From assembly GCA_017559505.1 (NCBI GenBank), contig JAFYSF010000025.1, positions 20,637 through 84,636 of the forward strand: 64,000 bases of DNA, written 5' to 3'. Both the position numbers and the translations under genes were made by a program. This DNA comes from Paludibacteraceae bacterium (lineage in GTDB: Bacteria; Bacteroidota; Bacteroidia; Bacteroidales; Paludibacteraceae). Positions 4,900 to 58,760 of the stretch are shown here, in pieces (within the stretch, counting starts at the first letter, position 1; every line of letters begins with the position of its first letter). Under the pieces are notes generated by a model, which saw only the letters and a program-made list of their open reading frames with translations, had not been told where the DNA came from and made no database searches.

Positions 4900-6084
4900 T
4901 TATTTTTTAATTCTATCAAATTCATCCCAAAAATTCGGATACGACTTATTTACCACCTCTGGGTTCTCTATTTCAATCTCTCTCATTAACCCTACAATCG
5001 ACATCGACATTGCTATACGATGGTCATTATACGCATTTATATATGGCACTTTTTCGCCTTCACCTCTCTCTCCCAACCAACAAATTTTACCCTTTTCATC
5101 ATATTTCAACGCATATCCACACTTACGCATTTCCGTCATCATCGCCCCTATTCTATCACTCTCCTTCACTCTCAACGTTTTCACACCACTTATCTCAAAT
5201 TCTACTCCCAACAAACATGCCACCACTACTATATACATCACAGCGTCTGGCATATTTTCACAATTCAGCTCTAATTTATTCACCTTGCATCCACTCCACT
5301 CTATTGCAACACCACCTTCTATCTCTTTAGTTTCAACCCCTAATCGTGCAAACACCTCCACCACCGCTCTATCAGGCTGAACGCTATCTAAACTCAATCC
5401 CAAAAATCTAAACTCCCCTCTTTTCAATACCGCCATCATAGCATACCACACCGTTGCCGACGACCAATCTTTCTCTCCACTATATCCTACACCTCTTCTA
5501 TATCTTTCTATCACACTATTTGTCAATCTAATATACGATTTCGAGGCCACATCTCCCTCATATTCTATCTCAATTCCACCCTCCACTCTGTCTGCAATCA
5601 ACATCAATGCCGATGCAAACTGACTACTCAACGACGCATCTAATCTCACTCGTCCGCCCCTCAATGCCTTACCTTTTATTTTCAATGGAGCAAATCCCTC
5701 TTTATCTACATAAGAAATATCTGCCCCCATTGCAAGCAAAACATCAACCAATGGCTTTATTGGTCGCTCACACAATCTTTTCGACCCAGTCAACACAAAT
5801 TCCCCCTCACTCACAGCACAATAAGCTGTCATAAACCGCAAAGCTGTCCCCGAATGATGCAAATCTAAATTCGTAATTGTGCATTGTGCATTGTGCATTG
5901 TGCACTGTTTCAACGCCCTCGACAACACAAATATATCATCATTCTCATCTTCAACCCCCACTTCTATTCCATTCAAAGCATCTAACACCAACTCCCTTGC
6001 CCTCACACTTTTCGACAAAGGCAAACCAATTGAGAACTTACCTTCTCCTGCATTATGAATTGTGAATTGTGAACCGTAGGTCAT
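4900..6084 (-). CDS. aroA: 3-phosphoshikimate 1-carboxyvinyltransferase (EPSP synthase)
   Basis: 394 aa with the motifs LPLSKSV, HSGTALRFMTAY, GSKRLCERPI and KESDR. Confidence 0.9.
   Translation of the reverse strand: MTYGSQFTIHNAGEGKFSIGLPLSKSVRARELVLDALNGIEVGVEDENDDIFVLSRALKQCTMHNAQCTITNLDLHHSGTALRFMTAYCAVSEGEFVLTGSKRLCERPIKPLVDVLLAMGADISYVDKEGFAPLKIKGKALRGGRVRLDASLSSQFASALMLIADRVEGGIEIEYEGDVASKSYIRLTNSVIERYRRGVGYSGEKDWSSATVWYAMMAVLKRGEFRFLGLSLDSVQPDRAVVEVFARLGVETKEIEGGVAIEWSGCKVNKLELNCENMPDAVMYIVVVACLLGVEFEISGVKTLRVKESDRIGAMMTEMRKCGYALKYDEKGKICWLGERGEGEKVPYINAYNDHRIAMSMSIVGLMREIEIENPEVVNKSYPNFWDEFDRIKK
5873..5907. repeat. tandem heptamer array TGCATTG x5 inside aroA
   Basis: gtaattg tgcattg tgcattg tgcattg tgcactg. 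On the coding strand it encodes QCTMHNAQCTITN. Confidence 0.9.
6051..6078. repeat. tandem heptamer array AATTGTG-type x4 at aroA 5' end
   Basis: cattatg aattgtg aattgtg aaccgta. Encodes the aroA N-terminus MTYGSQFTIHNA. Confidence 0.8.
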
Positions 6085-6097
6085 GAGCCTTTAAGCG

Positions 6098-6118
6098 AAT
6101 ATTGTGCATTATGAATTA
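6098..6118. repeat. heptamer array x3 (aatattg tgcatta tgaatta)
   Basis: Lies between the aroA start and the stop of the 6116-7441 gene. Confidence 0.6.
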
Positions 6119-7441
6119 TCTCCTAAATCCTGGCAATGACGCATAATTCAAACCACGCCACACATCATTATTCGAACGAACCGCCGAACTCTTTCCGCCT
6201 ATCAAATAAATATATCCGTTAGGAACAACCACTGCTGAATGACCATATCGTGGCACATACAAATCACCTATTTCTGATTTCGATTTAGGCGCGCCCCAAG
6301 TCAATCCAAAATCTTTAGAAAACACTTGAGCATCTTTCACCACCACACTTTCAGATTCCGAATCTGCAACCTGCGACATACCACCAAACAACATCAATCC
6401 ACCTCCATATTGAGCCAAAGCAGCATATGCTCGTGGCGAAAAACGTTCGATTCCACCGCTCAATTCGCTCCAATATCCTCCTGTTTCACTACTCCACACT
6501 GTCGACAAAAATCTACCATTGGCATCTATACCACCAACAACAAAAACCCTCTCTTTTCCCGAAGGTGCCTTTGCCACCAAAACAGCGGCTCCTTCTACAG
6601 GAAAGTCCGAAGGCAATCTACCCAAATCTACCCAATCTGTACCATCCAAACGTGCCAAACCATGATCTGCTGTAACGCCATACACCTTGCCCTCCATCGA
6701 AAACAATAGATATTCCACCGCTATACCTGTAATAACTTCAGATGTCCATGTTGCCCCATCCGCACTTTTATACAACTCTCCATCATAATACAGACAAACA
6801 AAGTCTTCATATCCAACCAAATAATTCAAATCTATATCCGAAAAATCAATATCCAAACCCGAAACTTCTAATGCCTCCCATTTCTCGCCATCAACACTCT
6901 CATTCACAAGCAAATCATTATCTACTATAGCAAAATAAAGCAATCTATCATTGATCCACAACACCTTTTCTGTCATGGCATAACCTCCAAACACCTCGCT
7001 CTTTATTCCTTGCCAGATGAACGTGTCAGGGTCAACAGTATGAACATTAACCTTCACAAAATAATCCGCCGAAGTCTTCTCATCCGACGCAACTACCGTG
7101 AATTTCACACCATTCGTAAAATCCAAATACACCTCTGTCAAATTATAATAATCAAGCGTATCATTGATATAAACCGACGAAAATCTCGGATTTATAACAA
7201 ACGACAACGAATCAATTCGAGTGCCATAATCAATCGAATCATAATTATAAATCAACATACTATCATCGTCGATAGTAAACACATAATCATCAATCCCCTC
7301 AATACTATCACTATAAAGATAAAACGAAGTGATTTTTGCCTCATCCGAAATCGTCGTAGATGTCGTTCCTCCACTATCCAAGCACGACGTTGCACACAAC
7401 ATCAAAAACATCATTCCTAAAATATAAATACTCTTTCTCAT
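6116..7441 (-). CDS. lipoprotein with Kelch/beta-propeller-like repeats (DUF6242-like)
   Basis: 441 aa with lipobox LMLCATSC. The C-terminal half has Kelch-like motifs (PRYGHSAVV, IYLIGG, VFVVGG). Confidence 0.5.
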   Translation of the reverse strand: MRKSIYILGMMFLMLCATSCLDSGGTTSTTISDEAKITSFYLYSDSIEGIDDYVFTIDDDSMLIYNYDSIDYGTRIDSLSFVINPRFSSVYINDTLDYYNLTEVYLDFTNGVKFTVVASDEKTSADYFVKVNVHTVDPDTFIWQGIKSEVFGGYAMTEKVLWINDRLLYFAIVDNDLLVNESVDGEKWEALEVSGLDIDFSDIDLNYLVGYEDFVCLYYDGELYKSADGATWTSEVITGIAVEYLLFSMEGKVYGVTADHGLARLDGTDWVDLGRLPSDFPVEGAAVLVAKAPSGKERVFVVGGIDANGRFLSTVWSSETGGYWSELSGGIERFSPRAYAALAQYGGGLMLFGGMSQVADSESESVVVKDAQVFSKDFGLTWGAPKSKSEIGDLYVPRYGHSAVVVPNGYIYLIGGKSSAVRSNNDVWRGLNYASLPGFRR

Positions 7442-7474
7442 AAATTCTTTCTATTATATTATTATACCAAACTG

Positions 7475-7482
7475 CAAAGTTA
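7475..7482 (-). promoter_or_regulatory. candidate -7 box (TAACTTTG on minus strand)
   Basis: Plus-strand CAAAGTTA, 34 nt upstream of the start at 7441. Confidence 0.45.
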
Positions 7483-8331
7483 ATTATTATTTTCCGATTT
7501 CACGCTATTTTCACCATATTTTTGAGTGCAAATCATCAAAACCACACCTAAAAGAAACAATGGCACGCTCAACCACTGCCCCATATTCAACACCATATCA
7601 TGCTCAAAACCAACCTGAATCTCCTTCACAAACTCCACACAAAATCTAAACCCAGCTATCACCATCAATTGCAACGACAAATAAAATCCCGGCTTAACAC
7701 TCTCATATTTCAATCGCTTAAACAACCAAACTCCCACTCCAAACAGCATAAAAAAGAACAACGACTCATACAACTGAGCTGGATGACGAGGCAAATCATC
7801 TATTTCAGGGAAAACAAATGCCCACACCACATCCGTCGATGCACCAACAATCTCCGAATTCATCAAATTACCCAATCTTATAAAAGCCCCAGCCAATGCC
7901 GTCGCTATAGCCATCCAATCCATTATCGGCAATATCGCCAACTTCGACCTCCATCTAAACAACATCAATGCCAACATCAACCCCATCACAGCACCATGAC
8001 TTGCCAAACCATGGTATCCACTAAAGTAATAATTCCCCATTTCATCGACACCCACAGGCAAAAACATCTCTATCGGATGCGACAAAAAATAATCTGCTTC
8101 ATAGAATAAACAATGCCCCAATCTCGCACCCAAAAATATTCCAAAAAACGACCAAATTATCAAATTCTCAAACACCCCCTGCTCAATTCCAAACTCCTTA
8201 AATCTACCCCACACATACCATCCCGCCAATACCAAACCCAAAGCAAACAACACCCCGTACCACAACAAAGTGAAGCTCCCAACCGAAAAAATCACCGGAT
8301 TGGGCGACCATACAATCCAAAATAAATTCAT
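7480..8331 (-). CDS. lgt: prolipoprotein diacylglyceryl transferase
   Basis: 283 aa, polytopic, with GARLGHCLFYE and PRHPAQLYES motifs. Confidence 0.9.
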   Translation of the reverse strand: MNLFWIVWSPNPVIFSVGSFTLLWYGVLFALGLVLAGWYVWGRFKEFGIEQGVFENLIIWSFFGIFLGARLGHCLFYEADYFLSHPIEMFLPVGVDEMGNYYFSGYHGLASHGAVMGLMLALMLFRWRSKLAILPIMDWMAIATALAGAFIRLGNLMNSEIVGASTDVVWAFVFPEIDDLPRHPAQLYESLFFFMLFGVGVWLFKRLKYESVKPGFYLSLQLMVIAGFRFCVEFVKEIQVGFEHDMVLNMGQWLSVPLFLLGVVLMICTQKYGENSVKSENNN

Positions 8332-8416
8332 AATATTTTCTTATGGGACTTCTATAAATTACCTTGTAAATAAAATTAAAAAACGGGCAATTTATAGAAG
8401 TTCCCTTGTTACAAAC

Positions 8417-8517
8417 ACCCATTTACAGTGTGTATCAAAATCACAAATCTCTCCTTACCCTCAAGCAACCTTCAAGCAACCTTCACCGAAGAAGACTGAC
8501 ACACACTCTCATTGTGT
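8417..8517 (-). repeat. copy 1 of the GTGTCAGTCTTCTTCGRTGAAGGTTGCTTGAAGGTTGC element family (reverse orientation; full ~105-bp form)
   Basis: The reverse complement aligns along its length with 49840-49948. The core also occurs at 23676-23724 and 40460-40558. Confidence 0.85.
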
Positions 8518-8530
8518 ACTCGCATTAAAA

Positions 8531-8558
8531 ATTCCTCACTCCTCATTCCTCATTCCAA
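8531..8558. repeat. tandem heptamer array ATTCCTC x4
   Basis: attcctc actcctc attcctc attccaa. Overlaps the dusB stop codon and last codons. Confidence 0.85.
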
Positions 8559-9534
8559 CCATTCCCGGCACCGAATCAATTATACCAAACAACTCATCCA
8601 ACGTCTCAGCTCTCAACATCGCAATCCTCGTCGGCTTAAAATGATCTATACCCTTAAACACTGGCGTAACCGCCAAATGTCTTCTACTATGCACAATCCC
8701 CTTCCTCTCATCACCCAACCACTCAATCGATCTCAACACATGCTCTTTTATAATATCAATTTGCCATTGCATCTCATACGGAGTCACATATTCTCCCGTT
8801 TGCAAGTAATGTTTCACCTCCTCAAAAATCCAAGGCCTACCAATCGACCCACGCCCAATCATCACAGCATCAACACCATACTTATCAAAACACTCTCTCG
8901 CCCTCTCTGGAGTTGTAACATCACCATTTCCAATAATCGGAATTCTCATTCTCGGATTATTCTTCACCTCACCAATCAATGTCCAATCAGCCTCACCAGT
9001 ATACATTTGCGCTCTCGTACGCCCATGAATCGCCAACGCCTGAGCTCCACAATCCTGTATAGCCTCTGCCAAATCAACAATAATTTTCGATTGATCATCC
9101 CAACCCAAACGCGTCTTCACCGTAACAGGTATCTTCACTGCCTCAACCACAGCCTTCGTGATAGCCAACAACTTAGGCACATCACGCAACATACCCGAAC
9201 CTGCCCCCTTACCAGCAACCTTCTTCACTGGGCACCCAAAATTCAAGTCCAAAATATCAGGTTTCGCTTCTTCCACAATCTTTGCAGCCTCCACCATCGT
9301 ATCCACATCCTTACCATAAATCTGTATCGCCACAGGTCTCTCCTCATCATGTATAGTCAACTTCTGCTCCGTACGTTTCACATTACGTATCAAAGCATCA
9401 GCACTAACAAACTCTGTATAAACCATATCCGCTCCAAATCGTTTACACAACAATCTGAATGCCGGATCCGTCACATCCTCCATCGGAGCCAAAAACAAAG
9501 GCTCTTTACCAAACTCTACATTACCTATTTTCAT
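8536..9534 (-). CDS. dusB: tRNA-dihydrouridine synthase
   Basis: Start moved to MKIGNVEFGKEPLFLAPMEDVTD (ATG = revcomp 9532-9534). The longer ORF-track N-terminus reads through heptamer repeats. Dus/FMN TIM-barrel motifs are present throughout. Confidence 0.9.
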   Translation of the reverse strand: MKIGNVEFGKEPLFLAPMEDVTDPAFRLLCKRFGADMVYTEFVSADALIRNVKRTEQKLTIHDEERPVAIQIYGKDVDTMVEAAKIVEEAKPDILDLNFGCPVKKVAGKGAGSGMLRDVPKLLAITKAVVEAVKIPVTVKTRLGWDDQSKIIVDLAEAIQDCGAQALAIHGRTRAQMYTGEADWTLIGEVKNNPRMRIPIIGNGDVTTPERARECFDKYGVDAVMIGRGSIGRPWIFEEVKHYLQTGEYVTPYEMQWQIDIIKEHVLRSIEWLGDERKGIVHSRRHLAVTPVFKGIDHFKPTRIAMLRAETLDELFGIIDSVPGMVGMRNEE

Positions 9535-9563
9535 ACCTTTTCCAACTTTTACTTTTAAAGGTA

Positions 9564-9571
9564 CAAAATTA
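9564..9571 (-). promoter_or_regulatory. candidate -7 box (TAATTTTG on minus strand) for dusB
   Basis: Plus-strand CAAAATTA, 30 nt upstream of the start at 9534. Confidence 0.45.
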
Positions 9572-9584
9572 CAAAAAAAATTCG

Positions 9585-9592
9585 TATCTTTG
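9585..9592 (+). promoter_or_regulatory. candidate -7 box TATCTTTG for the sufT-like/lpxH operon
   Basis: Exact TAnnTTTG match, 82 nt upstream of the ATG at 9674. Confidence 0.5.
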
Positions 9593-9599
9593 CACAAAA

Positions 9600-9665
9600 A
9601 AATTGAGAATTGAGAATTAAGAATTAAAAATTCAAGCATTCCTCACTCCTCACTCCTAATTCCTC
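9600..9665. repeat. two abutting heptamer arrays: GAATTRA x5 (9600-9634) and AYTCCTC x4 (9638-9665)
   Basis: aaattga gaattga gaattaa gaattaa aaattca / attcctc actcctc actccta attcctc. Confidence 0.85.
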
Positions 9666-9673
9666 ATTAAACT

Positions 9674-9985
9674 ATGAACGAATTTCTCGAACTTGAAGAA
9701 CGCATTGTTGCAATGCTCAAAACCGTTTTCGACCCAGAAATCCCTGTCAACATCTACGACCTCGGACTCATCTATCGCATTGACGCCAACGATGGCAACG
9801 TCATTCTCGACATGACCCTCACTGCGCCCAACTGCCCTGCTGCCGAATTCATTATGGAAGACGTCAAAATGAAAATCGAATCAGTCGAAGGCGTAAAATC
9901 AGTAACAGTCAATCTCGTATTCGAACCCGAATGGGATCGCTCAATGATGTCCGAAGAAGCCCAACTCGAACTCGGATTATTATGA
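9674..9985 (+). CDS. DUF59/SufT-like Fe-S assembly protein
   Basis: 103 aa with DPEIPVNIYDLGLIY...TLTAPNCP. Confidence 0.8.
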   Translation: MNEFLELEERIVAMLKTVFDPEIPVNIYDLGLIYRIDANDGNVILDMTLTAPNCPAAEFIMEDVKMKIESVEGVKSVTVNLVFEPEWDRSMMSEEAQLELGLL

Positions 9986-10749
9986 AACACTATTTCGTAG
10001 CAGATGCCCATCTTGGCTCACGCCTATTTGATGACAATGACGCAAAAATCGCCCATTTCATCGAATGGCTCAGTATGGCTACTGCCGAAGAATCCGAAAT
10101 ATATCTCCTCGGCGACATTTTCGACTTTTGGTTCGAATTTGCCCACGCCATTCCTCCCGGATTCGACCTCTTACTCAATACTCTCCGCCAAAAAACAGAG
10201 CAAGGCACCCGCATCCATTTCTTCTGTGGCAATCACGACCAATGGACCTATGGCCACCTCCACAACTATTGTGGACTCATCATTCACAAAAAAGGCGATT
10301 TCATCGACATCGAAGGCAAACGCTTCTATCTCGCCCACGGACATGGTCTTGGCGAAAAACGTCGCTCAACTCTCATTCTGAATCGCATATTCGAAAACTC
10401 AATAACCCAATGGCTTTTCCGCCATTTAATGATACCCCACCTTGGCTACGCCTTTGGCTATCGATGGAGTGCGCGCAATCGCAAAAAGCACGATTCCATC
10501 ACAAACACCAACCGCCACCACAACTACTATGAGGCTCACACCTCCGATTCCAATGCCTTCCAAGTAGAATGGGCAAAACAATTCACCACACAACACCCCG
10601 ACACCGACTATATCGTCATGGGCCACCTACACCAAGAAATCAATATGCGATTATCCACAGGTTGCCAACTCCTAATTCTCGATGAATTCTATCAAAACTA
10701 TGGCTACGCCATCTACGATGGCACCTACCTCTGGCCCGAAAACTTCTAA
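9982..10749 (+). CDS. lpxH: UDP-2,3-diacylglucosamine diphosphatase
   Basis: Start at ATG 9982 overlaps the upstream stop (ATGA). Metallophosphoesterase motifs DAHLG, GDIFDFW, GNHD and GHLH are present. Confidence 0.85.
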   Translation: MKHYFVADAHLGSRLFDDNDAKIAHFIEWLSMATAEESEIYLLGDIFDFWFEFAHAIPPGFDLLLNTLRQKTEQGTRIHFFCGNHDQWTYGHLHNYCGLIIHKKGDFIDIEGKRFYLAHGHGLGEKRRSTLILNRIFENSITQWLFRHLMIPHLGYAFGYRWSARNRKKHDSITNTNRHHNYYEAHTSDSNAFQVEWAKQFTTQHPDTDYIVMGHLHQEINMRLSTGCQLLILDEFYQNYGYAIYDGTYLWPENF

Positions 10750-10812
10750 AAACATTTAGCCTAATAAACGAAAAACAAGCTTATTAAAATTTCTTACGGA
10801 TATAAATTAACA

Positions 10813-10843
10813 AATAAGAGGCGCAAATATTGCGCCTCTTATT
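10813..10843 (+). terminator. intrinsic terminator after lpxH
   Basis: Perfect 13-bp stem aataagaggcgca/tgcgcctcttatt with a 5-nt loop. Confidence 0.75.
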
Positions 10844-11155
10844 GCTTTTCAACATACTCACATCGTGCATTATTTTGTAGGTTTTCTTGCTTACACCTTG
10901 CTTGAAGGTATAAATAATATGGTAACATCACTCCCACTTTGTACATACGAGAACACTCTTGGGATGTCACTCTACTTAGGCACACATAAGGAGCAGCTAT
11001 GGCTCACTATCTTGGCTCTATTCTTAAACTTGCTATTCGCAAAATTCAAATTTTACGAAATTCAAGAGAGTAAACCTACATTTCCAACTTAAACCTCCAA
11101 CGCACTTTCAAGATGTTGTATCTTTGCAAAAAATTGAAGGAGGGCAAATAAAAAA

Positions 11156-12594: not shown

Positions 12595-12736
12595 AGTTTA
12601 GAGTTTAGAGTTTAGAGTTTAGAGTGAAAATTGTCTATAACTCATAAGTCTTAACTCGAATAGTTAATAGTTAATTGGTTTTATGTAAAGTAAATATATA
12701 GTGAATCTCTATACACTATACTTTACACACTATACA
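12595..12736. repeat. nqrE-nqrF spacer built of heptamer blocks
   Basis: AGTTTAG x4 (12595-12625), TAACTCA-type x3 (12638-12658), AATAGTT x3 (12659-12679), CTATACA-type x4 (12709-12736). Confidence 0.85.
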
Positions 12737-12740
12737 TTAA

Positions 12741-13385: not shown

Positions 13386-13400
13386 ATTTCAAATATTTTT

Positions 13401-13470
13401 GTCAACGGTCAACGGTCAACAGCTGATAGTCATTAGACTGTTGTCTGTAGACTGTAGACTTTCGACATTT
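13401..13470. repeat. nqrD-nqrE spacer: ten in-phase heptamers
   Basis: gtcaacg gtcaacg gtcaaca gctgata gtcatta gactgtt gtctgta gactgta gactttc gacattt. Paralogous to 16116-16185. Confidence 0.9.
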
Positions 13471-13472
13471 TA

Positions 13473-14093
13473 TTATTTTTCTTGAAGGTCTTTGTTGATT
13501 GAACGGTGAACCCAAATGATACAAGCCACGATGATAAGCGCCATAGCAGGCATCATCATCATACCATTGTTTACATAACCCATTTCGTAGAACGAAGCAG
13601 GAATTACACGGAAACCAAAGAGTGTACCTGAACCGAGCAATTCACGGAAGAACGCTACAACGATTAAAACCCATGCATAACCAAGACCGTTACCGATACC
13701 ATCGAGGAACGAAGGCCAAGGTTTGTTTGCCATAGCAAATGCTTCAAGACGGCCCATAAGAATACAGTTAGTAATAATCAAACCGATATAAACCGAAAGT
13801 TGCACGCTAAGGTCGTACATGAAAGCTTTCAAAACTTCTGACACTACAGTTACGAGAGCAGCAACAACAACCAATTGCACGATGATACGTACACTGTTAG
13901 GAATAGTGTTGCGGATAAGAGATACTACAACGTTAGCCATAGCCACGATGATAGTAACCGAAATACCCATAACGATAGCAGGTTTCAATTGTACTGTTAC
14001 AGCTAAAGCTGAACAAATACCAAGTACTTGGATAGCTACAGGGTTGTTCTTGTTAAGAGGGCCAAGTAGCGCATTTTTCAATTCTTCTTTCAT
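13473..14093 (-). CDS. nqrD: Na+-NQR subunit D
   Basis: 206 aa, polytopic; NqrD/RnfE family and expected operon position. Confidence 0.95.
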   Translation of the reverse strand: MKEELKNALLGPLNKNNPVAIQVLGICSALAVTVQLKPAIVMGISVTIIVAMANVVVSLIRNTIPNSVRIIVQLVVVAALVTVVSEVLKAFMYDLSVQLSVYIGLIITNCILMGRLEAFAMANKPWPSFLDGIGNGLGYAWVLIVVAFFRELLGSGTLFGFRVIPASFYEMGYVNNGMMMMPAMALIIVACIIWVHRSINKDLQEK

Positions 14094-14847: not shown

Positions 14848-14924
14848 AGTTGAAAGTTGAAAGTTGAAAGCTGAAAGTTAGGTCATATAGAATATCTAAC
14901 CTTTAACCTCTAACCTTTAACCAT
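14848..14924. repeat. nqrB-nqrC spacer: eleven in-phase heptamers
   Basis: agttgaa x3, agctgaa, agttagg, tcatata, gaatatc, taacctt, taacctc, taacctt, taaccat. Confidence 0.9.
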
Positions 14925-14927
14925 TAT

Positions 14928-16097: not shown

Positions 16098-16115
16098 ATT
16101 TCTTTTATTGATTAT

Positions 16116-16185
16116 GTCAACAGTCAACGGTCAACGGTCGATAGTCAAATAGACTGTAAACTTTAGACTGTAGACTTTAGACATT
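16116..16185. repeat. nqrA-nqrB spacer: ten in-phase heptamers
   Basis: gtcaaca gtcaacg gtcaacg gtcgata gtcaaat agactgt aaacttt agactgt agacttt agacatt. Confidence 0.9.
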
Positions 16186-17538
16186 TTATTCAAGTTCTTT
16201 TCTCATATAGTTGAGGGCTTCGCGTACGATACGTTGTGTTTCAATTTTTGAAGTACAAACGAATTCGCAGAGGGCAAAATCTTCAGGAGCCACTTCGTAT
16301 GCACCGAGTTGTTCCATTTTCTCAAGGTTACGAGCAATCATAGCTTTAACCAATTGTTCTGGCATAATGTCCATTGGGAATACACGGTCGTATTCACCAC
16401 TTACGATGAATGCACGTTCTCCACCAAGGATACGAGCATCGAAATCGAATTGTTTTTTAGGACAAAGCATGCGTTGCAATTTTGTAAGGAAGAGGCATGA
16501 ATTAGAGAATTTGTTGAAACGTGGCATTGCCCAACCGAGAAGTTCGTCAGCTTCATCACCTTCTGCAATAACAGTTACTACATTTGCAAATGGTGAAAGG
16601 AACGATTTTTCATCAGTTTTCAAACCTGTAAGAACGTTACCGTTGATTACACGAATGTGTTCATCGAGGTTAAGGTTACCTTCTGTGATGTTGTTGACAA
16701 CTGTACCACTGATTGTTTCAACATAAACAGGGTGTTTTACTTTTGGACCAGCAACTGCTACTTTACGAGCAAAGTCGAGTTTACCTGTGTTTACATAACG
16801 GCCAAGCATTGCTACGTCCATAATGTTCATTGTCCAAACTGCTTCTTCTTTGTTCACTGGATTGAGGTGGTTGATTTGCACACCTACGTTACCAGCTGGG
16901 TGAGCACCGATGAATTCGTTGATTTCAACGCCTTTCATGTTACGCAATTCTGCCGATGTTGCAGGAGATACTGAATAGTAAGTTTTAGCAATAGCAGCCA
17001 AAACATTCAAACCTGCTTGTACATTAGCCTCTTCGCCTTTCAATACGAAATTGTAGTCAGCAGCCAAAGGAGCAGAATCAAAAGCAGATACGAAGATTGC
17101 TTTTGGAGCAACTTTAGGGTTAGCAACTACATCGTAAGGACGTTGACGCAACATAGCACCGAAACCAGCAGCCAACATAGCAGCGAGAATAGACTCTTTG
17201 CCTGCTTTAAGATCCATTGTAGGAAGCTCAGCTTGCTCTGTTTTACCGTTTTGTTCGATGAGCACGTAGAGTAGTTTACGGCGTTCGCCGCGTGCTACTT
17301 GCTTGATTGTACCACAAACGGGAGATACAACCTTCACCTCTGGGTGATTTTTGTCAAACAAGATAGGTGTACCGACTTTTACTTCGTCACCTTCTTTGAC
17401 AGCCACCTTAGGTGTCATACCTTCAAAATAATCAGGAACGATACCTACCTCTTGCGAGATAACTTTGCCAGCTACTTTAGCTTCAGCATCGCCTGAAATT
17501 TTGATGTTTAAACCTTTTTTTAATTTGATTGTTGTCAT
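16186..17538 (-). CDS. nqrA: Na+-NQR subunit A
   Basis: 450 aa; first gene of the nqrABCDEF order and full-length NqrA-like. Confidence 0.95.
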   Translation of the reverse strand: MTTIKLKKGLNIKISGDAEAKVAGKVISQEVGIVPDYFEGMTPKVAVKEGDEVKVGTPILFDKNHPEVKVVSPVCGTIKQVARGERRKLLYVLIEQNGKTEQAELPTMDLKAGKESILAAMLAAGFGAMLRQRPYDVVANPKVAPKAIFVSAFDSAPLAADYNFVLKGEEANVQAGLNVLAAIAKTYYSVSPATSAELRNMKGVEINEFIGAHPAGNVGVQINHLNPVNKEEAVWTMNIMDVAMLGRYVNTGKLDFARKVAVAGPKVKHPVYVETISGTVVNNITEGNLNLDEHIRVINGNVLTGLKTDEKSFLSPFANVVTVIAEGDEADELLGWAMPRFNKFSNSCLFLTKLQRMLCPKKQFDFDARILGGERAFIVSGEYDRVFPMDIMPEQLVKAMIARNLEKMEQLGAYEVAPEDFALCEFVCTSKIETQRIVREALNYMRKELE

Positions 17539-23675: not shown

Positions 23676-23724
23676 GTGTCAGTCTTCTTCGATGAAGGTT
23701 GCTTGAAGGTTGCTATTGGGTAAA
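23676..23724 (+). repeat. copy 2 (core only) of the GTGTCAGTCTTCTTCGATGAAGGTTGCTTGAAGGTTGC element
   Basis: gtgtcagtcttcttcgatgaaggttgcttgaaggttgctattgggtaaag. Confidence 0.85.
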
Positions 23725-30170: not shown

Positions 30171-30201
30171 AGATGTTGATTGACAATCAACATCTTTTTT
30201 T
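30171..30201. terminator. bidirectional terminator between convergent genes
   Basis: Perfect 11-bp stem agatgttgatt/aatcaacatct with a 3-nt loop, flanked by an A-run and a T-run. Overlaps the recQ-family stop. Confidence 0.75.
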
Positions 30202-31896
30202 ATTTGCTATACAAACATCACATCGGCCACATGGTTGAGCATCGGATTGTCCGAAATAACGTGCGAGTTGCACTGAGCGACATGTATTTTTAGTTGAATA
30301 ATCATATATAGAAACAAGCCGTGCGTACATTCGGTCTATTCTATTCTCATATGCCACAGGAGGTATATAGAGAGTTTCGGCATCGAGACGATCGGTGTTA
30401 TAAATGAGTAGGGGTGTACGTTTAAATGGCACATAAGTAACTACTCCAACACGGTGAAGCCAAATAAGATAGGCATATACTACCTCGCGCGTGGTATGCG
30501 CTAAAATGGCTATTTTATCTTCGTTTATATGTTTTGCATCAGTAAATATCCCAGTGTAAGTACGTAATATGGTCTCAAGTATTTCGTCTTTTTCGGGATG
30601 CTCCATACGCCATTCATAGAGTTTCGATGGATGCATAACAACTTTCAGTTTACTTGGACTCTCCATTTCTTCAGTTAAGGTGATATAGCCTGCCCATTGC
30701 AAGATGTTGAGCGCCCCCATCGTTTGAGAATAGGAGAGGCGACAAACATGACAAAATTCCTCCAACTTGAATGGATAAACAGAACCATTGCCTGAACCTT
30801 CTCCAATAATATAGTAATTGGCAAGATGCTGGTATATAGAGCGGACGTACTCTTTAGGAGGGAATACTTTTTCGTGACGACGCACTAATTGTTCAACCGA
30901 ACTTGGAGTTGTGAGCAATACAGCATACGACTTCTGCCCATCGCGACCGGCACGCCCAGCCTCTTGATAATATTGCTCGAGAGCATCGGGTATGTCGTAG
31001 TGAATTACTAATCGCACATCCGACTTGTCAATACCCATGCCGAAAGCATTTGTAGCACATAGTATTCGTGTATCACCTGACATCCAACTATTTTGACGTT
31101 CTTTACGCACATTTGCCTCTAAACCTGCATGATAATAATCTGCAGATAGGTCCATTGATTGTAGCATTTTGGCTACCTTCTCGGCTCCATCGCGAGTGCG
31201 AGTATAGACAATAGTGGAACCATTTACGGCATTGAGTATTTTGAATAGTTGCGCATCTTTATTATCTGACATGCGCACAACATAGTGTAGATTTTGACGT
31301 TCGACACTCGCCTGAAACATATTGCTTGGCACACGGAAAGCGAGTTTGTCTTTTATGTCAGTAACAACATCGGGAGTGGCAGATGCAGTCAGCGCCATAA
31401 TCGGCACATCGGGATACATCGTGCGTAATTCGGCAATTTTCAGGTAAGAAGGGCGGAAATCGTAGCCCCATTCTGATATACAGTGAGCTTCATCGACAGC
31501 AATGAAACTGAGTTGTAGGAATTGTAACCGTTTGAGAAAGAGATCTGACTGTAGGCGTTCGGGAGCGACATAGAGCATTTTGAATGCGCCATATTGGGCT
31601 TGTTCGAGTATGCTGAACACCTTGTCGCGATTCATTCCAGCATGAATCACTTCGGCGCGGATGCCTCGCTTTCGTAGATTTTGAATTTGGTCAGTCATCA
31701 AAGCAATTAAAGGCGAAATAATGAGAGCCATACCTTCCATTGCAAGAGCAGGCACTTGATAGGTGATGGATTTACCTCCCCCCGTTGGTAATATGGCAAG
31801 GGTGTCATGTCCCGAGCCAATGCTTTCGATAATATCTAATTGCAATGGTCGGAATTCGTCGTAGCCCCAGTTTTCCTTTAATATTTTTTTATACAT
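30187..31896 (-). CDS. RecQ-family ATP-dependent DNA helicase
   Basis: 569 aa with GYDEFRPLQ, PTGGGKS, DEAHCISEWGYDFRPSY and a C-terminal CGRCDVC. Confidence 0.85.
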   Translation of the reverse strand: MYKKILKENWGYDEFRPLQLDIIESIGSGHDTLAILPTGGGKSITYQVPALAMEGMALIISPLIALMTDQIQNLRKRGIRAEVIHAGMNRDKVFSILEQAQYGAFKMLYVAPERLQSDLFLKRLQFLQLSFIAVDEAHCISEWGYDFRPSYLKIAELRTMYPDVPIMALTASATPDVVTDIKDKLAFRVPSNMFQASVERQNLHYVVRMSDNKDAQLFKILNAVNGSTIVYTRTRDGAEKVAKMLQSMDLSADYYHAGLEANVRKERQNSWMSGDTRILCATNAFGMGIDKSDVRLVIHYDIPDALEQYYQEAGRAGRDGQKSYAVLLTTPSSVEQLVRRHEKVFPPKEYVRSIYQHLANYYIIGEGSGNGSVYPFKLEEFCHVCRLSYSQTMGALNILQWAGYITLTEEMESPSKLKVVMHPSKLYEWRMEHPEKDEILETILRTYTGIFTDAKHINEDKIAILAHTTREVVYAYLIWLHRVGVVTYVPFKRTPLLIYNTDRLDAETLYIPPVAYENRIDRMYARLVSIYDYSTKNTCRSVQLARYFGQSDAQPCGRCDVCIANKKRC

Positions 31897-31918
31897 GCGT
31901 TTTTGGATTTTGTAGATG

Positions 31919-31926
31919 CAAAGGTA
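31919..31926 (-). promoter_or_regulatory. candidate -7 box (TACCTTTG on minus strand) for the recQ-family gene
   Basis: Plus-strand CAAAGGTA, 23 nt upstream of the start at 31896. Confidence 0.45.
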
Positions 31927-31966
31927 GTAATTTTTTTTTGATTTTGAAATATATGTGCAGATTAGA

Positions 31967-32032
31967 TTATAGTATGTTTATAGTATATTTATCCTATATT
32001 TATAGTATATTTATGGTATATTTATAGTATAT
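31967..32032. repeat. 6 x 11-bp tandem array (TTATAGTATAT family), module copy A
   Basis: ttatagtatgt ttatagtatat ttatcctatat ttatagtatat ttatggtatat ttatagtatat. Paralogous to 62150-62215. Confidence 0.9.
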
Positions 32033-32123
32033 TGAAGGTATGAAGAGGATAGGGTGAGGGGAGGGGGGATTGTGTGTGTATTTATGGGGTGGTGGGGGTG
32101 GAGGGTGTAATGTGTTGGGTGTG
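32033..32123. repeat. G/T-rich low-complexity tail with G-runs, roughly 7-nt phased
   Basis: tgaaggt atgaaga ggatagg gtgaggg gaggggg ... ggggtggtgggggtggaggg. Confidence 0.6.
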
Positions 32124-32241
32124 ATTATTGTTTTGGGTTTAATTTATTGATTTTTAGGTTGATTTTTGTTGGATTTGAGGCGATGGTGTATTTTATTGTA
32201 AAATTGCATGAAAAATTGATAAAAAAAAGATAATTTTTTAT

Positions 32242-32249
32242 TAACTTTG
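32242..32249 (+). promoter_or_regulatory. candidate -7 box TAACTTTG
   Basis: 28 nt upstream of the ATG at 32277. Confidence 0.5.
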
Positions 32250-32276
32250 TAGTCGGAAAATTTTAACGTTTAATTT

Positions 32277-34097
32277 ATGGATTTTGGTTTAATTGATTTA
32301 TTGACCCTCATTGGTTCTATCGGACTTTTCTTGTACGGTATGAAGTTGATGAGTGAGGGTTTGCAGAAGGCTGCGGGTGACCGTTTGCGTAACATTTTGG
32401 CTTGGATGACAAACAATCGTTTGGTCGGAGCTTTGACCGGTATTCTTGTTACTGCGCTCATACAGAGTTCGTCGGCAACTACTGTGATGATTGTTAGTTT
32501 CGTTAATGCCGGATTGTTGTCTTTGGGACAATCTATGGCTGTGATTATGGGTGCTAACGTTGGTACTACTGCTACGGCATGGATTCTTTATTTAGGTGGT
32601 TTCAAAGTAAATCTTGCGGCAGCAGCTATTCCTATTGTTGCTTTCACGTTGCCTATGATGTTTTCGCAAAAGAATTCATGGAAAAGCTGGGGTGAAGTTT
32701 TATTGGGTTTTGCCTTCTTGTTTATGGGCTTGGACTTGTTGAACCACTCGGTGCCTGATTTGCGCTCGAATCCTGAACTTTTTGCTGCTATACAAAATTA
32801 TGCTGATATGGGGTGGATTTCTGTGGTGTTGTTTGCCTTTATCGGTATGATTATTACGATTGTGGTACAATCATCGAGCGTGACTTTTGCTATTACTCTT
32901 GTAATTTGTAGCAAGGGTTGGATTTCGTTTGAGATGGCAGCGGCATTGGTGCTTGGTAGCAATATTGGTACTTGTATTACGCCTATCATTGCATCGGCTT
33001 CGGGTAATATTTGGGCTAAGCGTTCGGCTATGGGACACTTGTTGTTCAATGTTTTAGGCTCTGTTTGGGTGTTGGCTCTATATTATCCGTTTATGAAATT
33101 GGTGATTTGGTTGTCGACTCTCGGTCAAGGCGATCCAACGGCGTTGCTCTCTTTTGTGAATAACACAGACCCTACTATTATCAATGCATTGAACGAAGGA
33201 ACGCTTGATTTGGCTGACCCAGTAAATCAACAACTTGCTACTACATTTACGGCTAATCAGGCATACGTGTCGTTTGGATTGTCGATATTCCATACGCTCT
33301 TTAATGCAATCAATATCTGCGTTATGATTTGGCTTACAGGCTTGTATGTGAAAATAGTAACGAAACTTATTCCAAGCAAACCTACTGAAGAAGAGGGTGA
33401 ATCGCACCTTAAATTTATCACAGCGGGTATGCTCTCTACATCGGAGCTTTCTATACTACAAGCGCGTAAAGAAATCCAACTCTATGGCGAACGTACACAA
33501 CGTATGTTTGGCCTTGTGCGTGATTTGTTCCACGAAACAGATGACAAGGAATTTACAAGCAAATACTCTCGTATTCAGAAGTATGAGAATATTTCTGACC
33601 GCATGGAGATGGAGATTGCTGAGTATTTGACAAAGGTTTCGGCAGGTCGTCTTTCGGATGAAAGTAAACACCAAGTGCAGATGAAGCTTCGTGTTATCTC
33701 TGAAATTGAGAGTGTTGCCGATTCATGTTACAATCTTGCTCGTACGTTGCAACGTCGTTTCCAACAACCTGAAAAATTCCCAGAAGATATTAATGGCAAT
33801 ATCGAATTGATGTTTAACCTCATCGAAAGCGGTTTGCAAAATATGTGTAATGTGCTCTGCGAGGAACATATAGATCAATCGTACGTAAATTCGGCGCAAA
33901 ATATTGAAAACGAAATCAATAACTATCGCAATCAACTTAAACTACAAAATGTTATTGCTGTGAATGAGGGCTATTATAATTACCCTGTGGCAACTACATA
34001 TATGGACACAATCGTTGAATGCGAGAAAATGGGCGATTATATCGTGAATGTGGTTGAGGCTGTAGCTGACTCAAAACTACATCCAACAGCTGAATGA
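32277..34097 (+). CDS. Na/Pi cotransporter family protein with PhoU-like C-terminal domain
   Basis: 606 aa with LFLYGMKLMSEGLQKAAG, QSSSATTVM and GANVGTT repeats. Confidence 0.85.
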   Translation: MDFGLIDLLTLIGSIGLFLYGMKLMSEGLQKAAGDRLRNILAWMTNNRLVGALTGILVTALIQSSSATTVMIVSFVNAGLLSLGQSMAVIMGANVGTTATAWILYLGGFKVNLAAAAIPIVAFTLPMMFSQKNSWKSWGEVLLGFAFLFMGLDLLNHSVPDLRSNPELFAAIQNYADMGWISVVLFAFIGMIITIVVQSSSVTFAITLVICSKGWISFEMAAALVLGSNIGTCITPIIASASGNIWAKRSAMGHLLFNVLGSVWVLALYYPFMKLVIWLSTLGQGDPTALLSFVNNTDPTIINALNEGTLDLADPVNQQLATTFTANQAYVSFGLSIFHTLFNAINICVMIWLTGLYVKIVTKLIPSKPTEEEGESHLKFITAGMLSTSELSILQARKEIQLYGERTQRMFGLVRDLFHETDDKEFTSKYSRIQKYENISDRMEMEIAEYLTKVSAGRLSDESKHQVQMKLRVISEIESVADSCYNLARTLQRRFQQPEKFPEDINGNIELMFNLIESGLQNMCNVLCEEHIDQSYVNSAQNIENEINNYRNQLKLQNVIAVNEGYYNYPVATTYMDTIVECEKMGDYIVNVVEAVADSKLHPTAE

Positions 34098-34205
34098 ATA
34101 ACCTGAGTTCGATATAATTTTGCTCTCACGGAACCAAAGGGCTTTGAACGTAGCGATAAAATGCGCGGAATACTTATATCGAACTGACGTTAAATACCAA
34201 AAACT

Positions 34206-40459: not shown

Positions 40460-40558
40460 GTGTCAGTCTTCTTCGATGAAGGTTGCTTGAAGGTTGCTTA
40501 CAGATAAGGAAAGGTTTTATCTTATCCATCAGCAAAGTACAAGCAACCTTTAAGCAAG
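40460..40558 (+). repeat. copy 3 of the GTGTCAGTCTTC... element core, extended into a long hairpin
   Basis: The core is followed by a 15-bp stem (40485-40499 with 40541-55, one G-U pair) that encloses an inner gataag/cttatc hairpin. Confidence 0.8.
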
Positions 40559-40971: not shown

Positions 40972-42003
40972 ATGAGAGTGTTGATAACTTGTTTTTCGTC
41001 TATTAGCAATGTTGCTGCAATTGTTCCACAGCTTTATGGACTTGTGAATGACTATCCTCAGCACGAATTTGTTGTGCTAAGCCGTAGTTTTTTGAAGCCA
41101 TTGTTCGACAAATTGCCACGTGTGACTTTTGTCGGTGCTGACATTCGTGGCGAGCATAAAACAATCGTTGGGGTATATCAGTTATTCAAACAATTAAAGG
41201 CTATGAGGCCAGATGTTGTATTAGACATGCAACGCTCGTGGCGCACGAAGTTGATAACTCGCCTTTTTACATTGTTAGGTACTAAAACTTTACAAATTGG
41301 ATTTGCTCGAAGCGAACAAAAACATTTGATTAAACAAGGAGCAAACAAGTATCACCCAATTCCTACAATATTCGACCGCCAAGCACGTTTATATGCTAAA
41401 ATAGGGCTGAAAGTAAACGATGATTTCCATAAACTCTATGACCCAAACATGGAGCAAGTGGCAAAAATCAAAGAATTGTATGGGGAGAAACTTGGACATT
41501 GGATTGGCATTGCTCCATTCTCGATTGCAAGAGGTAAAACATTGCCACTCCGCAAGATGAAGAATGTTATTGCTCATTTTGACAAGCAACCAAATACAAA
41601 AATTTTCTTGTTCGGCGCAGGAGAAATGGAGAACGAGTTGCTCTCTGATTGGCAATCGCTCTACAACAATGTTTATGCGGTGCATACAAATTTGAAACTT
41701 GACGATGAATTGATATTGATGAATTTTTTGGATGTTATGTTGTGTATGGACTCGGCTAATATGCACTTAGCGTCGTTGATGGCTGTACCTGTGGTGAGTG
41801 TTTGGGGCGCAACGCATCCTTATTCGGGATTTCTTGGATGGAAACAGTCTGTGGATAATTGCGTAGGAGTAGATTTTTCGTGCCGACCTTGTACGGCTCA
41901 TTCCGACAAGAAATGTAAATATGGCGACTATCGTTGCCTCGAAAGTCTCCATTCAAGCAAAATAATAGAAATAATTAATCAATGCATAATGCACAATGCA
42001 TAA
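40972..42003 (+). CDS. glycosyltransferase family 9 (heptosyltransferase-like)
   Basis: 343 aa with a two-Rossmann GT-B layout. Its size and motifs resemble LPS heptosyltransferase-type proteins. The C-terminus (QCIMHNA) is encoded by a heptamer array. Confidence 0.6.
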   Translation: MRVLITCFSSISNVAAIVPQLYGLVNDYPQHEFVVLSRSFLKPLFDKLPRVTFVGADIRGEHKTIVGVYQLFKQLKAMRPDVVLDMQRSWRTKLITRLFTLLGTKTLQIGFARSEQKHLIKQGANKYHPIPTIFDRQARLYAKIGLKVNDDFHKLYDPNMEQVAKIKELYGEKLGHWIGIAPFSIARGKTLPLRKMKNVIAHFDKQPNTKIFLFGAGEMENELLSDWQSLYNNVYAVHTNLKLDDELILMNFLDVMLCMDSANMHLASLMAVPVVSVWGATHPYSGFLGWKQSVDNCVGVDFSCRPCTAHSDKKCKYGDYRCLESLHSSKIIEIINQCIMHNA

Positions 42004-42015
42004 TGCACAATTGCC
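41981..42015. repeat. tandem heptamer array AATGCAY x5
   Basis: aatgcat aatgcac aatgcat aatgcac aattgcc. Confidence 0.9.
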
Positions 42016-42054
42016 ATTCGGTATTTGTTTAATTAATAATAAAAAGATAATTAA

Positions 42055-42089
42055 GATTATGCATTGTGCATTTAGCATTGTGCATTGAA
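42055..42089. repeat. tandem heptamer array CATTGTG-type x5, inverted relative to 41981-42015
   Basis: gattatg cattgtg catttag cattgtg cattgaa. Confidence 0.9.
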
Positions 42090-49839: not shown

Positions 49840-49948
49840 ACACACAGTGAGTGGGTGTCAGTCTTCTTCGGTGAAGTTTGCTTGAAGGTTGCTTGAGAGG
49901 GTAGGAAGATATTTGGATTTTGAATATACACTGTGAATGGGTAGTCAG
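49840..49948 (+). repeat. copy 4 (full ~105-bp form) of the GTGTCAGTCTTC... element, with ~20-bp terminal direct repeats
   Basis: DR-L is acacagtgagtgggtgtcag (49842-61) and DR-R is acactgtgaatgggtagtcag (49928-48). The core is gtcttcttcggtgaagtttgcttgaaggttgcttgagagggtagg. Confidence 0.85.
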
Positions 49949-57667: not shown

Positions 57668-58660
57668 TTTCCAATGTGGATTATTTTTTTTGTAAAATAA
57701 TATTGATATTATTATTGTTAATATGTATAGAGGATAGAATAATGACATTAAAGGGAAGAATATTGGATAGTATTTTAATATTTTATGTTGTTTATATTTA
57801 AATAGATAAGGCAACATTATTATATTTTCAATAATGAAAATTATTAAAAATATAGGAAGTATAAAATGAGGAATGAGAAATATGAATATTAGTAATAAAA
57901 TATTGATGATTGCAACTGAAAAAGCAACTAATATTGTTGTAAAATCTTTATAATTTATTGATTTAGATGCCCAACGAGTGCGTTGGATGATGAATTTTTT
58001 AAATGAATTTGTGCCTTTAGTTTTAATTATATAGTTGCTATCATATAGATAATTTATTTTTGCCTTGCTTTTTTTGAGTGCATGTAACATAAACATATCA
58101 TCACCTGAAGCAATATTTTTGTTTATTTTGTCTATATACTGGATATATATATTGCGCTTTATAATTAAATTAGCACCATTACACATAATAGGATTATTGA
58201 GTAGGGCTGTGTAAGCAGTAATTGCTTGAAGAGAAGAAAATTCTATTTTTTCTATTATATTAAAAATACCTTTTTCATCAATAATATCTACAGCGCCAAG
58301 TAGCATATCACTATTATTTTTATTGAGATATTGTAGTGCTAATTCACAATGATTATTATTTAAGCAACAATCGGCATCGGTAAATATTAGATATTTAGAT
58401 GTTGCTATTTTAGCTGCTTCTATTAGTGCTGATTTTTTACCTTTACCACTATTTTTAATTACCTTTATTTTATTATATTTTTTTGAATAATTTATTAAAA
58501 AATTGTAGGTTTCATCGGTAGAATTGTCATCAACAAATATAACTTCATCTGGCTTGAATGTTTGGTTTTTTATAGATTCAAGCAAGTTAGTAAGATTGCT
58601 TATTTCATTGCGACAAGCAATTATAATTGAAAGTTGAGAATTGAGAGTTGAAAATTGCAT
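57665..58660 (-). CDS. glycosyltransferase family 2 with C-terminal TM helices
   Basis: 331 aa with IIIACRNE...VIFVDDNSTDET and TDADC. The N-terminal MQFSTLNSQLS is encoded by a heptamer array. Confidence 0.75.
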   Translation of the reverse strand: MQFSTLNSQLSIIIACRNEISNLTNLLESIKNQTFKPDEVIFVDDNSTDETYNFLINYSKKYNKIKVIKNSGKGKKSALIEAAKIATSKYLIFTDADCCLNNNHCELALQYLNKNNSDMLLGAVDIIDEKGIFNIIEKIEFSSLQAITAYTALLNNPIMCNGANLIIKRNIYIQYIDKINKNIASGDDMFMLHALKKSKAKINYLYDSNYIIKTKGTNSFKKFIIQRTRWASKSINYKDFTTILVAFSVAIINILLLIFIFLIPHFILPIFLIIFIIENIIMLPYLFKYKQHKILKYYPIFFPLMSLFYPLYILTIIISILFYKKNNPHWK

Positions 58661-58702: not shown

Positions 58703-58745
58703 ATATATTTTTTTTATATGAGATTGTTATATGCTAATTTTTTAG

Positions 58746-58753: not shown

Positions 58754-58760
58754 CACTGTT

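Follow-up and report, generated by a model that had tools for sequence, protein, structure and literature searches.

What is the nature of an array of 11-bp repeats lodged between two divergently oriented genes of a Paludibacteraceae bacterium, and does it serve those genes? The array, here called module A, lies in a 64,000-nt stretch of contig JAFYSF010000025.1 (the window; assembly GCA_017559505.1, forward-strand positions 20,637 to 84,636), between a recQ-family gene and a Na/Pi transporter gene. We favor, with a probability of roughly 0.6, the interpretation that module A belongs to a family of interspersed repeats, ~100 bp long and specific to the lineage. Its copies are confined to spacers, enriched at divergent promoters, and polar to local strand composition. 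The repeat is neither a structured RNA nor a G-quadruplex element, and it is not conserved with its present neighbors. Judged by comparison with related loci, it is unlikely to be a dedicated regulator of recQ, of the Na/Pi transporter gene, or of metG, which adjoins a second copy.

Almost nothing has been described of the interspersed repeats of uncultured gut Bacteroidales. Elsewhere, repetitive extragenic palindromic (REP) sequences, BOX elements, and short tandemly repeated repetitive (STRR) sequences serve as strain markers, shape assembly quality, and can alter expression.

Module A is one of two related elements in the window

Six contiguous 11-bp units of the form TTATNNTATRT occupy positions 31967–32032 of the + strand (copy 1), and a second six-unit array is found at 62150–62215, also on the + strand (copy 2). 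Tandem Repeats Finder (TRF) reported 6.1 copies of TTATAGTATAT at 31967–32033 (score 106, 87% matches) and an equal array at 62150–62216. The degenerate three-unit pattern (TTATNNTATRT x3) matches the window at these two places only, and none of 100 dinucleotide-preserving shuffles of the window contained it. By TRF and by shuffling, the head-to-tail units are thus beyond chance and form a tandem repeat (minisatellite), confirming the six units that a preliminary description of this DNA had reported at 31967.

The units of copy 1 run TTATAGTATGT, TTATAGTATAT, TTATCCTATAT, TTATAGTATAT, TTATGGTATAT, and TTATAGTATAT, with NN reading AG, AG, CC, AG, GG, and AG; in copy 2, NN reads AG, AG, AG, CC, GG, and AG. 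The variants found in both arrays are an ATGT, a CC, and a GG unit, whose order differs slightly, so the copies are homologous and differ by gain or loss of units. They can be aligned from 31956/62139 to 32054/62237, a span of 99 nt with 89% identity, and beyond these limits have composition alone in common. The shared 99 nt consist wholly of 11-nt units: one left unit, six core units, and two right units, R1 and R2. In copy 1 the left unit (TGCAGATTAGA, 31956–31966, + strand) starts the repeated element, and R1 (TGAAGGTATGA) and R2 (AGAGGATAGGG), at 32033–32054 (+), end it. The counterparts in copy 2 are TGCAGATAAGG at 62139–62149 (+), followed after the core by TGAAGGTAAGG and AGAGGTTAGGG at 62216–62237 (+). 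The left and R1 units are direct, not inverted, repeats.

The two tails are unlike. That of copy 1 (32055–32125, +) is locus-specific, C-free, and dense in G-runs; that of copy 2 (62238–62300, +) is a locus-specific series of GGGAG-type purine-rich heptamers (AGCAGGG, AGTAGGG, and similar), with TRF periods of 7/14/28 at 62233–62287. The near-identical paralogue previously placed at 62150–62299 is real as a second array; the homology covers only the 99 nt, and the tails are unrelated.

The element belongs to a dispersed family

The preliminary description had proposed counting copies of the array and their contexts. Searching a single genome of each GTDB species for the three-unit pattern, we identified at least 107 loci among the matches listed. 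Unless another total is given, the family statistics that follow refer to 105 copies, the two of the window included, with genes called crudely as longest open reading frames (ORFs). About 100 of the listed loci come from eight metagenome-assembled genomes (MAGs), which bear the names Candidatus Aphodosoma sp. or Paludibacteraceae bacterium; a single MAG accounts for at least 22. The remaining five listed matches are unrelated AT-rich sequences. One Aphodosoma locus is syntenic with the window at 20.9–26.8 kb (77% identity).

Among the matches listed, arrays range from 3 to 10 units, with a mode of six (48/108) followed by five (27/108). The left unit is of the form TGNAGRTWnnn, with the left flank conserved over ~11 nt, and the right-flank consensus is TGTAGnTAGGG AGAGGTTAGGG. 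Pairwise homology of nonorthologous copies stops 0–22 nt to the left and mostly 11–33 nt to the right of the array, and these end points define an element of ~100 bp. The G-run tail, which had been described as part of the module, falls outside the family consensus. Core unit types are heterogeneous across the family (AG, CC, GG, and CA). Many nonorthologous intergenic sites thus share the same end modules, which is the organization of an interspersed mosaic repeat.

Arrays and tails could instead have arisen independently in C-depleted spacers by local slippage under strand-biased mutation, like heptamer STRR arrays and long simple sequence repeats (LSSRs), without any copying between loci. 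The lineage is indeed rich in 7-bp arrays and C-free spacers, its GC skew at third codon positions (GC3 skew) is extreme, close relatives bear other short repeats at the same place, and unrelated 11-bp AT-rich arrays arise in giant-virus contigs. More than 100 nonorthologous copies are known, however, and their shared end 11-mers, heterogeneous unit types, and narrow lengths argue against independent slippage; the unit number is also invariant among conspecific strains. We consider this origin improbable.

An origin as plasmid or phage replicon iterons was also considered and found no support: blastn searches of plasmid and phage collections gave no match to the module, and a pattern scan of IMG/VR gave 57 unrelated matches, all homogeneous AT-only 11-mers without left, R1, or R2 flanks and mostly in giant-virus MAGs.

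A TTCTTCGTCAGTTTAGTTGAAA cassette directly follows R2 in 21 of 100 copies, nine of which have an inverted partner 170–470 nt farther on. The interiors of four such cassettes (L011, L039, L062, and L067) match the Rfam family Acido-Lenti-1 (RF01687; 39–45 bits), a motif described from other phyla.

Intergenic location and relation to promoters

None of the 105 copies lies inside an ORF of at least 100 aa. The 79 copies with two called neighbors comprise 47 in divergent, 29 in co-directional, and 3 in convergent spacers. A second count, from which ORFs running off locus ends were excluded, gave 27 divergent, 28 co-directional, and 5 convergent (n = 60); on this count the element occupies 52% of the divergent, 14% of the co-directional, and 9% of the convergent spacers of those loci. 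The divergent-promoter setting noted for copy 1 thus extends to the family. Outward-facing boxes of the Bacteroidetes −7 type (TAnnTTTG) cluster 25–150 nt from the array edges, with a peak at 50–125 nt and no fixed distance.

Both copies in the window follow this plan. Copy 1 is flanked by an ORF with DEAD, Helicase_C, and RecQ_Zn_bind domains (30187–31896, − strand) and one with Na_Pi_cotrans and PhoU domains (32277–34097, +), bearing out the divergent recQ-family and Na/Pi transporter genes of the preliminary description. The neighbors of copy 2 are an N-glycanase-like ORF (60905–62035, −) and metG (from 62412, +). Putative −7 boxes, read from the sequence, face outward in both spacers. The recQ-like gene has TACCTTTG on the − strand at 31919–31926, 40 nt left of the array, and the Na/Pi cotransporter gene has TAACTTTG at 32242–32249 (+), 209 nt right of the array, in a promoter-proximal stretch shared with the orthologues at loci L113–L115. 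For the N-glycanase-like gene the box is TATCTTTG on the − strand at 62088–62095, and for metG it is TAACTTTG at 62364–62371 (+), within a conserved metG promoter module that begins at ~62326. Distances from array to start codon are 198–244 nt. The + strand of each spacer is almost free of C (copy 1, 380 bp, 2.6% C and 26% G; copy 2, 3.5% C and 24% G), in line with the G-rich tract first reported.

The location near promoters raises the possibility that the element is transcribed. Its left unit (TTTGCAG...) could be a degenerate −7 box or a transcription start, and the array an unstructured A/U-rich leader or small RNA, for example, one that binds S1 or loads Rho. TTTGCAG or TGTGCAG, which resembles the 3′ part of TAnnTTTGCAG promoters, is common in left flanks; heptamer arrays of the lineage sit in 5′ untranslated regions (UTRs); and an RNA from the bottom strand would be rich in C, poor in G, and without structure (−2.9 kcal/mol over 170 nt). 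An exact TAnnTTTG that points inward and ends within 25 nt of the left edge of the array was found in only 3 of the 105 copies, however. Each downstream gene is separated from the element by a canonical promoter of its own, the orientation of the element is independent of gene direction, and neither structure nor an Rfam family was detected. A transcribed element therefore seems very improbable to us.

Every unit junction in both arrays reads TATATTTA or TATGTTTA, one mismatch from the −7 consensus TAnnTTTG. These near matches give the array several phased, near-consensus −7 boxes on the + strand.

Orientation and strand asymmetry

The G/T-rich strand of the element is the locally G-rich strand. 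The GC skew of the far flanks, read along this strand, is positive for 81 of 101 copies (mean +0.14; binomial p = 7e-10). Top-strand skew is positive over neighbors encoded on the + strand (20/22 on the left, 61/66 on the right) and also over those on the − strand (45/57 and 14/16). In co-directional contexts the element points with the genes in 17 cases and against them in 12. Orientation thus follows strand composition and not the direction of neighboring genes, which argues against a promoter-directional role. Because the skeleton of the core is free of G and C, loss of these bases cannot explain the result as a bias of detection. On the G strand of the element, C makes up 4–6% within 50 nt on either side and returns to 15–18% by ~250 nt.

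The asymmetry is extreme, patchy, and lineage-wide, and it is a property of the region. In the window, per-gene GC3 skew ranges from about −0.8 to +0.8, flips every 2–8 kb, and tracks the region rather than the gene strand; GC skew per kb reaches −0.58 and +0.41. It is strong at 2000–11000 and 58700–64000, where the genes include the housekeeping genes aroA, lgt, dus, recG, and metG. For example, the gene at 9931–10749 (+) has third-position frequencies of C (C3) of 0.47 and of G (G3) of 0.07, amid − strand genes with C3 of 0.02–0.06, and the gene at 60905–62035 (−), with C3 of 0.49, adjoins recG (+), with C3 of 0.03. An absolute GC3 skew above 0.5 is found in 43% of 280 genes at loci of the array-bearing genomes versus 1% of 192 genes at other Bacteroidales loci. 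For metG, C3 is 0.12 in the window versus 0.23–0.24 in L205 and L206, with 64–70 C>T versus 7–9 T>C differences. Recent C-to-T hypermutation was considered as the cause of the skew over the 5′ end of the Na/Pi gene and was rejected, because several types of change occur side by side on the branch to the window (T>G 8, A>G 6, C>T 6). One skew regime may underlie the C-free tails, the heptamer arrays, and the orientation rule of module A.

A bolder possibility is that module A is a chromosomal repeat, hairpin-less and strand-polar, whose orientation is fixed relative to DNA replication. It would then be either a polar protein-binding array for chromosome handling or the product of single-stranded copying at the fork by an unrecognized mechanism. 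We regard this as unlikely. If true, the element, the heptamer arrays, and the patchy GC3 skew would together mark a strand-biased DNA transaction peculiar to the lineage. More generally, a mechanistic link between orientation and skew would offer a handle on how a repeat spreads without hairpins or terminal inverted repeats, and on what drives the skew.

Evolutionary stability and turnover

Several arrays have orthologous counterparts in other species, where the flanking genes share ~82–85% nucleotide identity (for example, L013/L035/L040, L032/L046, L056/L065, L025/L052, L076/L078, L066/L103, and L067/L090). Between species, these arrays differ by one or two units and also change at NN and at position 10. 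Within species, the metG copy has six units in all seven conspecific sequences with the same arrangement (7/7; 94–97.5% metG nucleotide identity). Across these seven, no change was found at the 48 skeleton positions or the 6 instances of position 10, whereas NN varies at 4 of 12 and R1R2 at 2 of 22 positions. The tail varies at 13 of 63 positions and by one heptamer; the promoter plus 5′ UTR is invariant (0/111). Phase variation by a contingency repeat was considered and rejected given the constant unit number.

What follows R2 can be exchanged. In conspecific L215 and L223 (98.1% nucleotide identity) everything after R2 is replaced by a TTCTTTGTCAAGTTAGTTGAAA cassette, and in conspecific L220–222 (98.4–98.7%), whose contigs begin after the array position, a third cassette occupies the place after R2. 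Relatives at ~90% nucleotide identity are more varied. L193–201 and L231 have the same two metG-flanking genes and a 142-bp spacer that lacks the module; ATAATTC heptamers are found between its promoters, and its 5′ UTR contains AATGCAT x4. L212 has a degenerate five-unit module, and others have different left neighbors, including Por_Secre_tail, Zn_ribbon, and AAA_14 genes. With identical flanking genes in all of them, the module is thus present in the window and L212 and absent from L193–201; the whole inter-promoter stretch differs, so an insertion boundary is unreadable.

At the other locus, Na/Pi transporter orthologues with 89–91% amino acid identity lack the array, and the gene upstream is a different one. 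At the corresponding position, each carries a short C-poor repeat of its own, such as GAGTATAGAGATTA x3 in L113, and more distant relatives have plain spacers. A tie of the module to recQ, the Na/Pi gene, or metG does not hold, given that orthologous loci and relatives with the same flanking genes do without it. The idea that copy 1 acts as a Pho box was likewise rejected: the orthologous Na/Pi genes lack the array, and the family adjoins unrelated genes.

As far as these sequence comparisons go, the element is stable over short times and dispensable over longer ones, and the spacers that hold it are rearrangement hot spots. The family breaks metagenome assemblies and marks spacers where gene order changes between close relatives.

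The spacers at 31897–32276 (Na/Pi) and 62036–62411 (metG) are gene-order breakpoints, and methionyl-tRNA synthetase variants with 97–99% amino acid identity have at least five different upstream neighbors. Public assemblies of the same strain (L110–L112 and L109) end 190–270 nt upstream of the Na/Pi gene, within the G-rich tail, and one scaffold is chimeric exactly at GGGTGGTGGGGGTGGAGGG.

Folding, G-quadruplex potential, and curvature

Neither module (170 and 162 nt) folds better than shuffled sequences on either strand (z = −0.37, −0.28, and +1.52), and the array as single-stranded DNA gave z = −0.25. A search of Rfam gave no match to the module at the gathering score or at E ≤ 1. With fold z scores near 0 and no Rfam match, the element does not qualify as a structured noncoding RNA. 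The folds and an inverted-repeat search revealed no palindromic or stem-loop modules of the kind typical of BOX elements and bacterial interspersed mosaic elements (BIMEs). No inverted repeats were found bounding or inside the element; in the two spacers, only the divergent −7 boxes and A/T runs form such repeats.

Quadruplex potential had been attributed to the G-run tail, and control by a G-quadruplex is a further alternative: the tail would fold on the nontemplate strand and modulate transcription or replication. G-runs are dense in copy 1, which has a single relaxed motif (loops up to 12) at 32086–32119, and assemblies break there. The potential is weak, however. Canonical motifs (G3+, loops 1–7) are absent from the window, and copy 2 lacks any motif. 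In the family, a motif is present in 5% of 103 right tails with loops up to 7 and in 9% with loops up to 12, which is above shuffles, and it is missing from most tails. The tail is variable between strains and no part of the conserved element. A G-quadruplex is therefore not the defining feature of the element, and such control is the least probable of the alternatives we weighed, with hardly any likelihood.

Curvature, which the preliminary description had offered as one possible consequence of the 11-bp phasing, is indeed predicted. A Bolshoy-type wedge model, on whose parameters the estimate depends, gave a predicted bend of ~87 degrees over the 66-bp array, versus 34 ± 18 degrees for composition-matched shuffles and 123 degrees for a phased A-tract. 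This places the array at the 99.4th percentile of the 66-bp stretches of the window.

The strongest rival to a dispersed repeat is an architectural cis-element, in which the phased units would form a bent AT-rich platform, or six sites on one face for a nucleoid-associated or ribbon-helix-helix/winged-helix protein, and would be selected for insulating or co-activating divergent promoters. The predicted bend (top 0.6% of the window) is consistent with this, as is the enrichment in divergent spacers 50–125 nt upstream of outward −7 boxes. So are the conserved 9-nt core TATRTTTAT around a free NN, with a skeleton that is invariant among strains while NN varies, the modal length of six units, and the retention of arrays at orthologous sites between species. 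On the other hand, the distance to promoters is variable, close relatives with the same gene pair dispense with the element, and its orientation tracks strand skew and neither promoter. Conservation of the pure A/T skeleton can be explained by AT-biased, C-depleting mutation that spares it. No candidate binding protein was identified, nor was a linked partner gene found. We judge such a selected function rather unlikely overall.

Comparison with known repeats and possible mode of spread

By analogy, the best reading is that module A represents a newly described interspersed mosaic repeat, comparable to BOX, BIME, and STRR sequences. BOX of Streptococcus pneumoniae is a modular repeat of the form boxA-(boxB)n-boxC, and BIMEs are enterobacterial. 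Like these, the element is a short noncoding modular mosaic present in tens to hundreds of copies, exclusively intergenic, with a tandem middle module, conserved end modules, and variable presence among close relatives. Unlike them, it is built of 11-nt rather than ~45–60-nt units, has no palindromes or stable hairpins, and is strongly strand-asymmetric, with an orientation tied to GC skew.

The STRR sequences of cyanobacteria are tandem repeats of heptamers. Heptamer repeats of the TAACTGA type are reported from Beggiatoaceae, cyanobacteria, and some Bacteroidetes, including Paludibacter (PMC4679880), and LSSRs were treated by Mrazek et al. 2007, as cited in PMC4679880. Module A shares with these repeats short intergenic tandem units, often near gene starts, and a patchy phylogeny. 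It differs from them in its conserved, non-repeat-like ends, its fixed skeleton with heterogeneous units, and its narrow copy number; it also lies far from the start codon (198–244 nt) and behaves as a copied element. In the searchable literature we found no description of the element: its unit sequence appeared only by chance, and nothing relevant was found on skew or repeats in Paludibacter or Bacteroidales.

Direct repeats with an 11-bp period bind proteins in other systems. The parC site of plasmid R1 contains two sets of five 11-bp ParR sites, and Pho boxes and PhoP-type sites are 11-bp direct repeats. Module A resembles these in having five to six 11-bp direct repeats on one DNA face at promoters and, for Pho boxes, in the position of copy 1 upstream of a Na/Pi-PhoU gene. 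In contrast to them, it occurs in tens of chromosomal copies beside unrelated genes, has no linked partner gene and no sequence similarity, and is absent from orthologous phosphate-transporter loci and from plasmid and phage collections. The resemblance is one of functional analogy only.

Among mobile sequences, miniature inverted-repeat transposable elements (MITEs) and the REP/REPIN sequences mobilized by Y1/HUH enzymes are, like module A, nonautonomous, ~100 bp, multicopy, and intergenic. The orientation bias relative to strand asymmetry recalls IS200/IS605 elements, and an IS200-family tnpA and REP-like units are present in the lineage. In contrast to MITEs, the element shows no terminal inverted repeats and no target-site duplication; in contrast to REP/REPIN sequences, it contains no hairpin; and no clean insertion polymorphism was seen for it. 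The Y1 gene of the lineage scores as an IS200-family transposase and not as a REP-associated tyrosine transposase (77 versus 19 bits). It sits among a different, hairpin-bearing 105-bp repeat.

We picture module A as a dispersed repeat that has been copied to many unrelated spacers of Candidatus Aphodosoma and Paludibacteraceae genomes, an uncultured gut lineage. Its unit number is fixed within a species, and the element is retained at some orthologous sites between species and absent from others. If it acts at all, it probably does so as DNA and not as RNA, because neither a fold nor a fixed promoter is associated with it and its orientation is indifferent to neighboring genes. Spread or retention may be linked to the replication strand, as for single-strand transposons, because the G/T-rich strand of the element is also the one richer in G locally. 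The lineage has an active IS200-family single-strand transposase as well as REP-like units, and the element is without the hairpins that such enzymes use. Between divergent promoters, the predicted bent AT-rich segment may attract a nucleoid protein. The G-run tail would be specific to its locus, one of the C-depleted fillers found in spacers of this lineage.

Several points weigh against this interpretation. Retention of the AT skeleton, the modal six units, and conservation of sites across species could reflect a selected function, such as protein binding. The sign of local GC skew switches every few kb, and its equation with the present direction of replication is unproven. The modeled bend depends on the wedge parameters used, and any 11-bp repeat would sum its per-unit bend. 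Finally, neither terminal inverted repeats, a target-site duplication, an HUH hairpin, nor a clean filled/empty pair was found.

Other repeats in the window and its relatives

The window contains many 7-bp arrays. The ORF for aroA (EPSP synthase; 4900–6084, −) has two in frame, at 5876–5908 and 6045–6076 (ATTGTGC/ATTGTGA on the + strand), which encode QCTMHNAQCTITN and residues 4–12. Spacer arrays of 4–5 copies were identified at 12595–12739, 13397–13483, 14848–14926, 16112–16199, 41980–42087, 9598–9666, and 58625–58657, among others, often immediately ahead of start codons and as pairs that are partly complementary. They differ among close relatives at the same 5′ UTR: L193 has AATGCAT x4 before metG and the window none. 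These arrays resemble the TAACTGA/STRR phenomenon (PMC4679880).

A second small repeat family is found at 23676–23714, 40460–40498, and 49855–49893, as a reverse complement at 8457–8510, and in related form at 10876–10909. It consists of GTGTCAGTCTTCTTCGA followed by two TGAAGGTTGCT 11-mers and R-like units, with a short UUCG-loop hairpin. From its sequence, this family looks like a relative of module A that lacks the array and uses 11-nt units of the same type.

At 34098–34200 there is a MITE whose terminal inverted repeats are GAGTTCGATATAA and TTATATCGAACT. A longer copy is polymorphic upstream of metG, with cleanly distinguishable filled and empty sites among related strains (L237, L241, and L243 versus L235). 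Downstream of metG, tandem REP-like units of ~105 bp (CTGCAGGTAATTTTTGC...GACGCTTTCAGCGTC) occur in L206–L211, L227, L228, and L230. In some genomes a gene for a 150-aa IS200-family transposase (NF033573, 77 bits) is inserted among these units. The units begin with CTGCAGGTAAT, which is similar to the left unit of module A.

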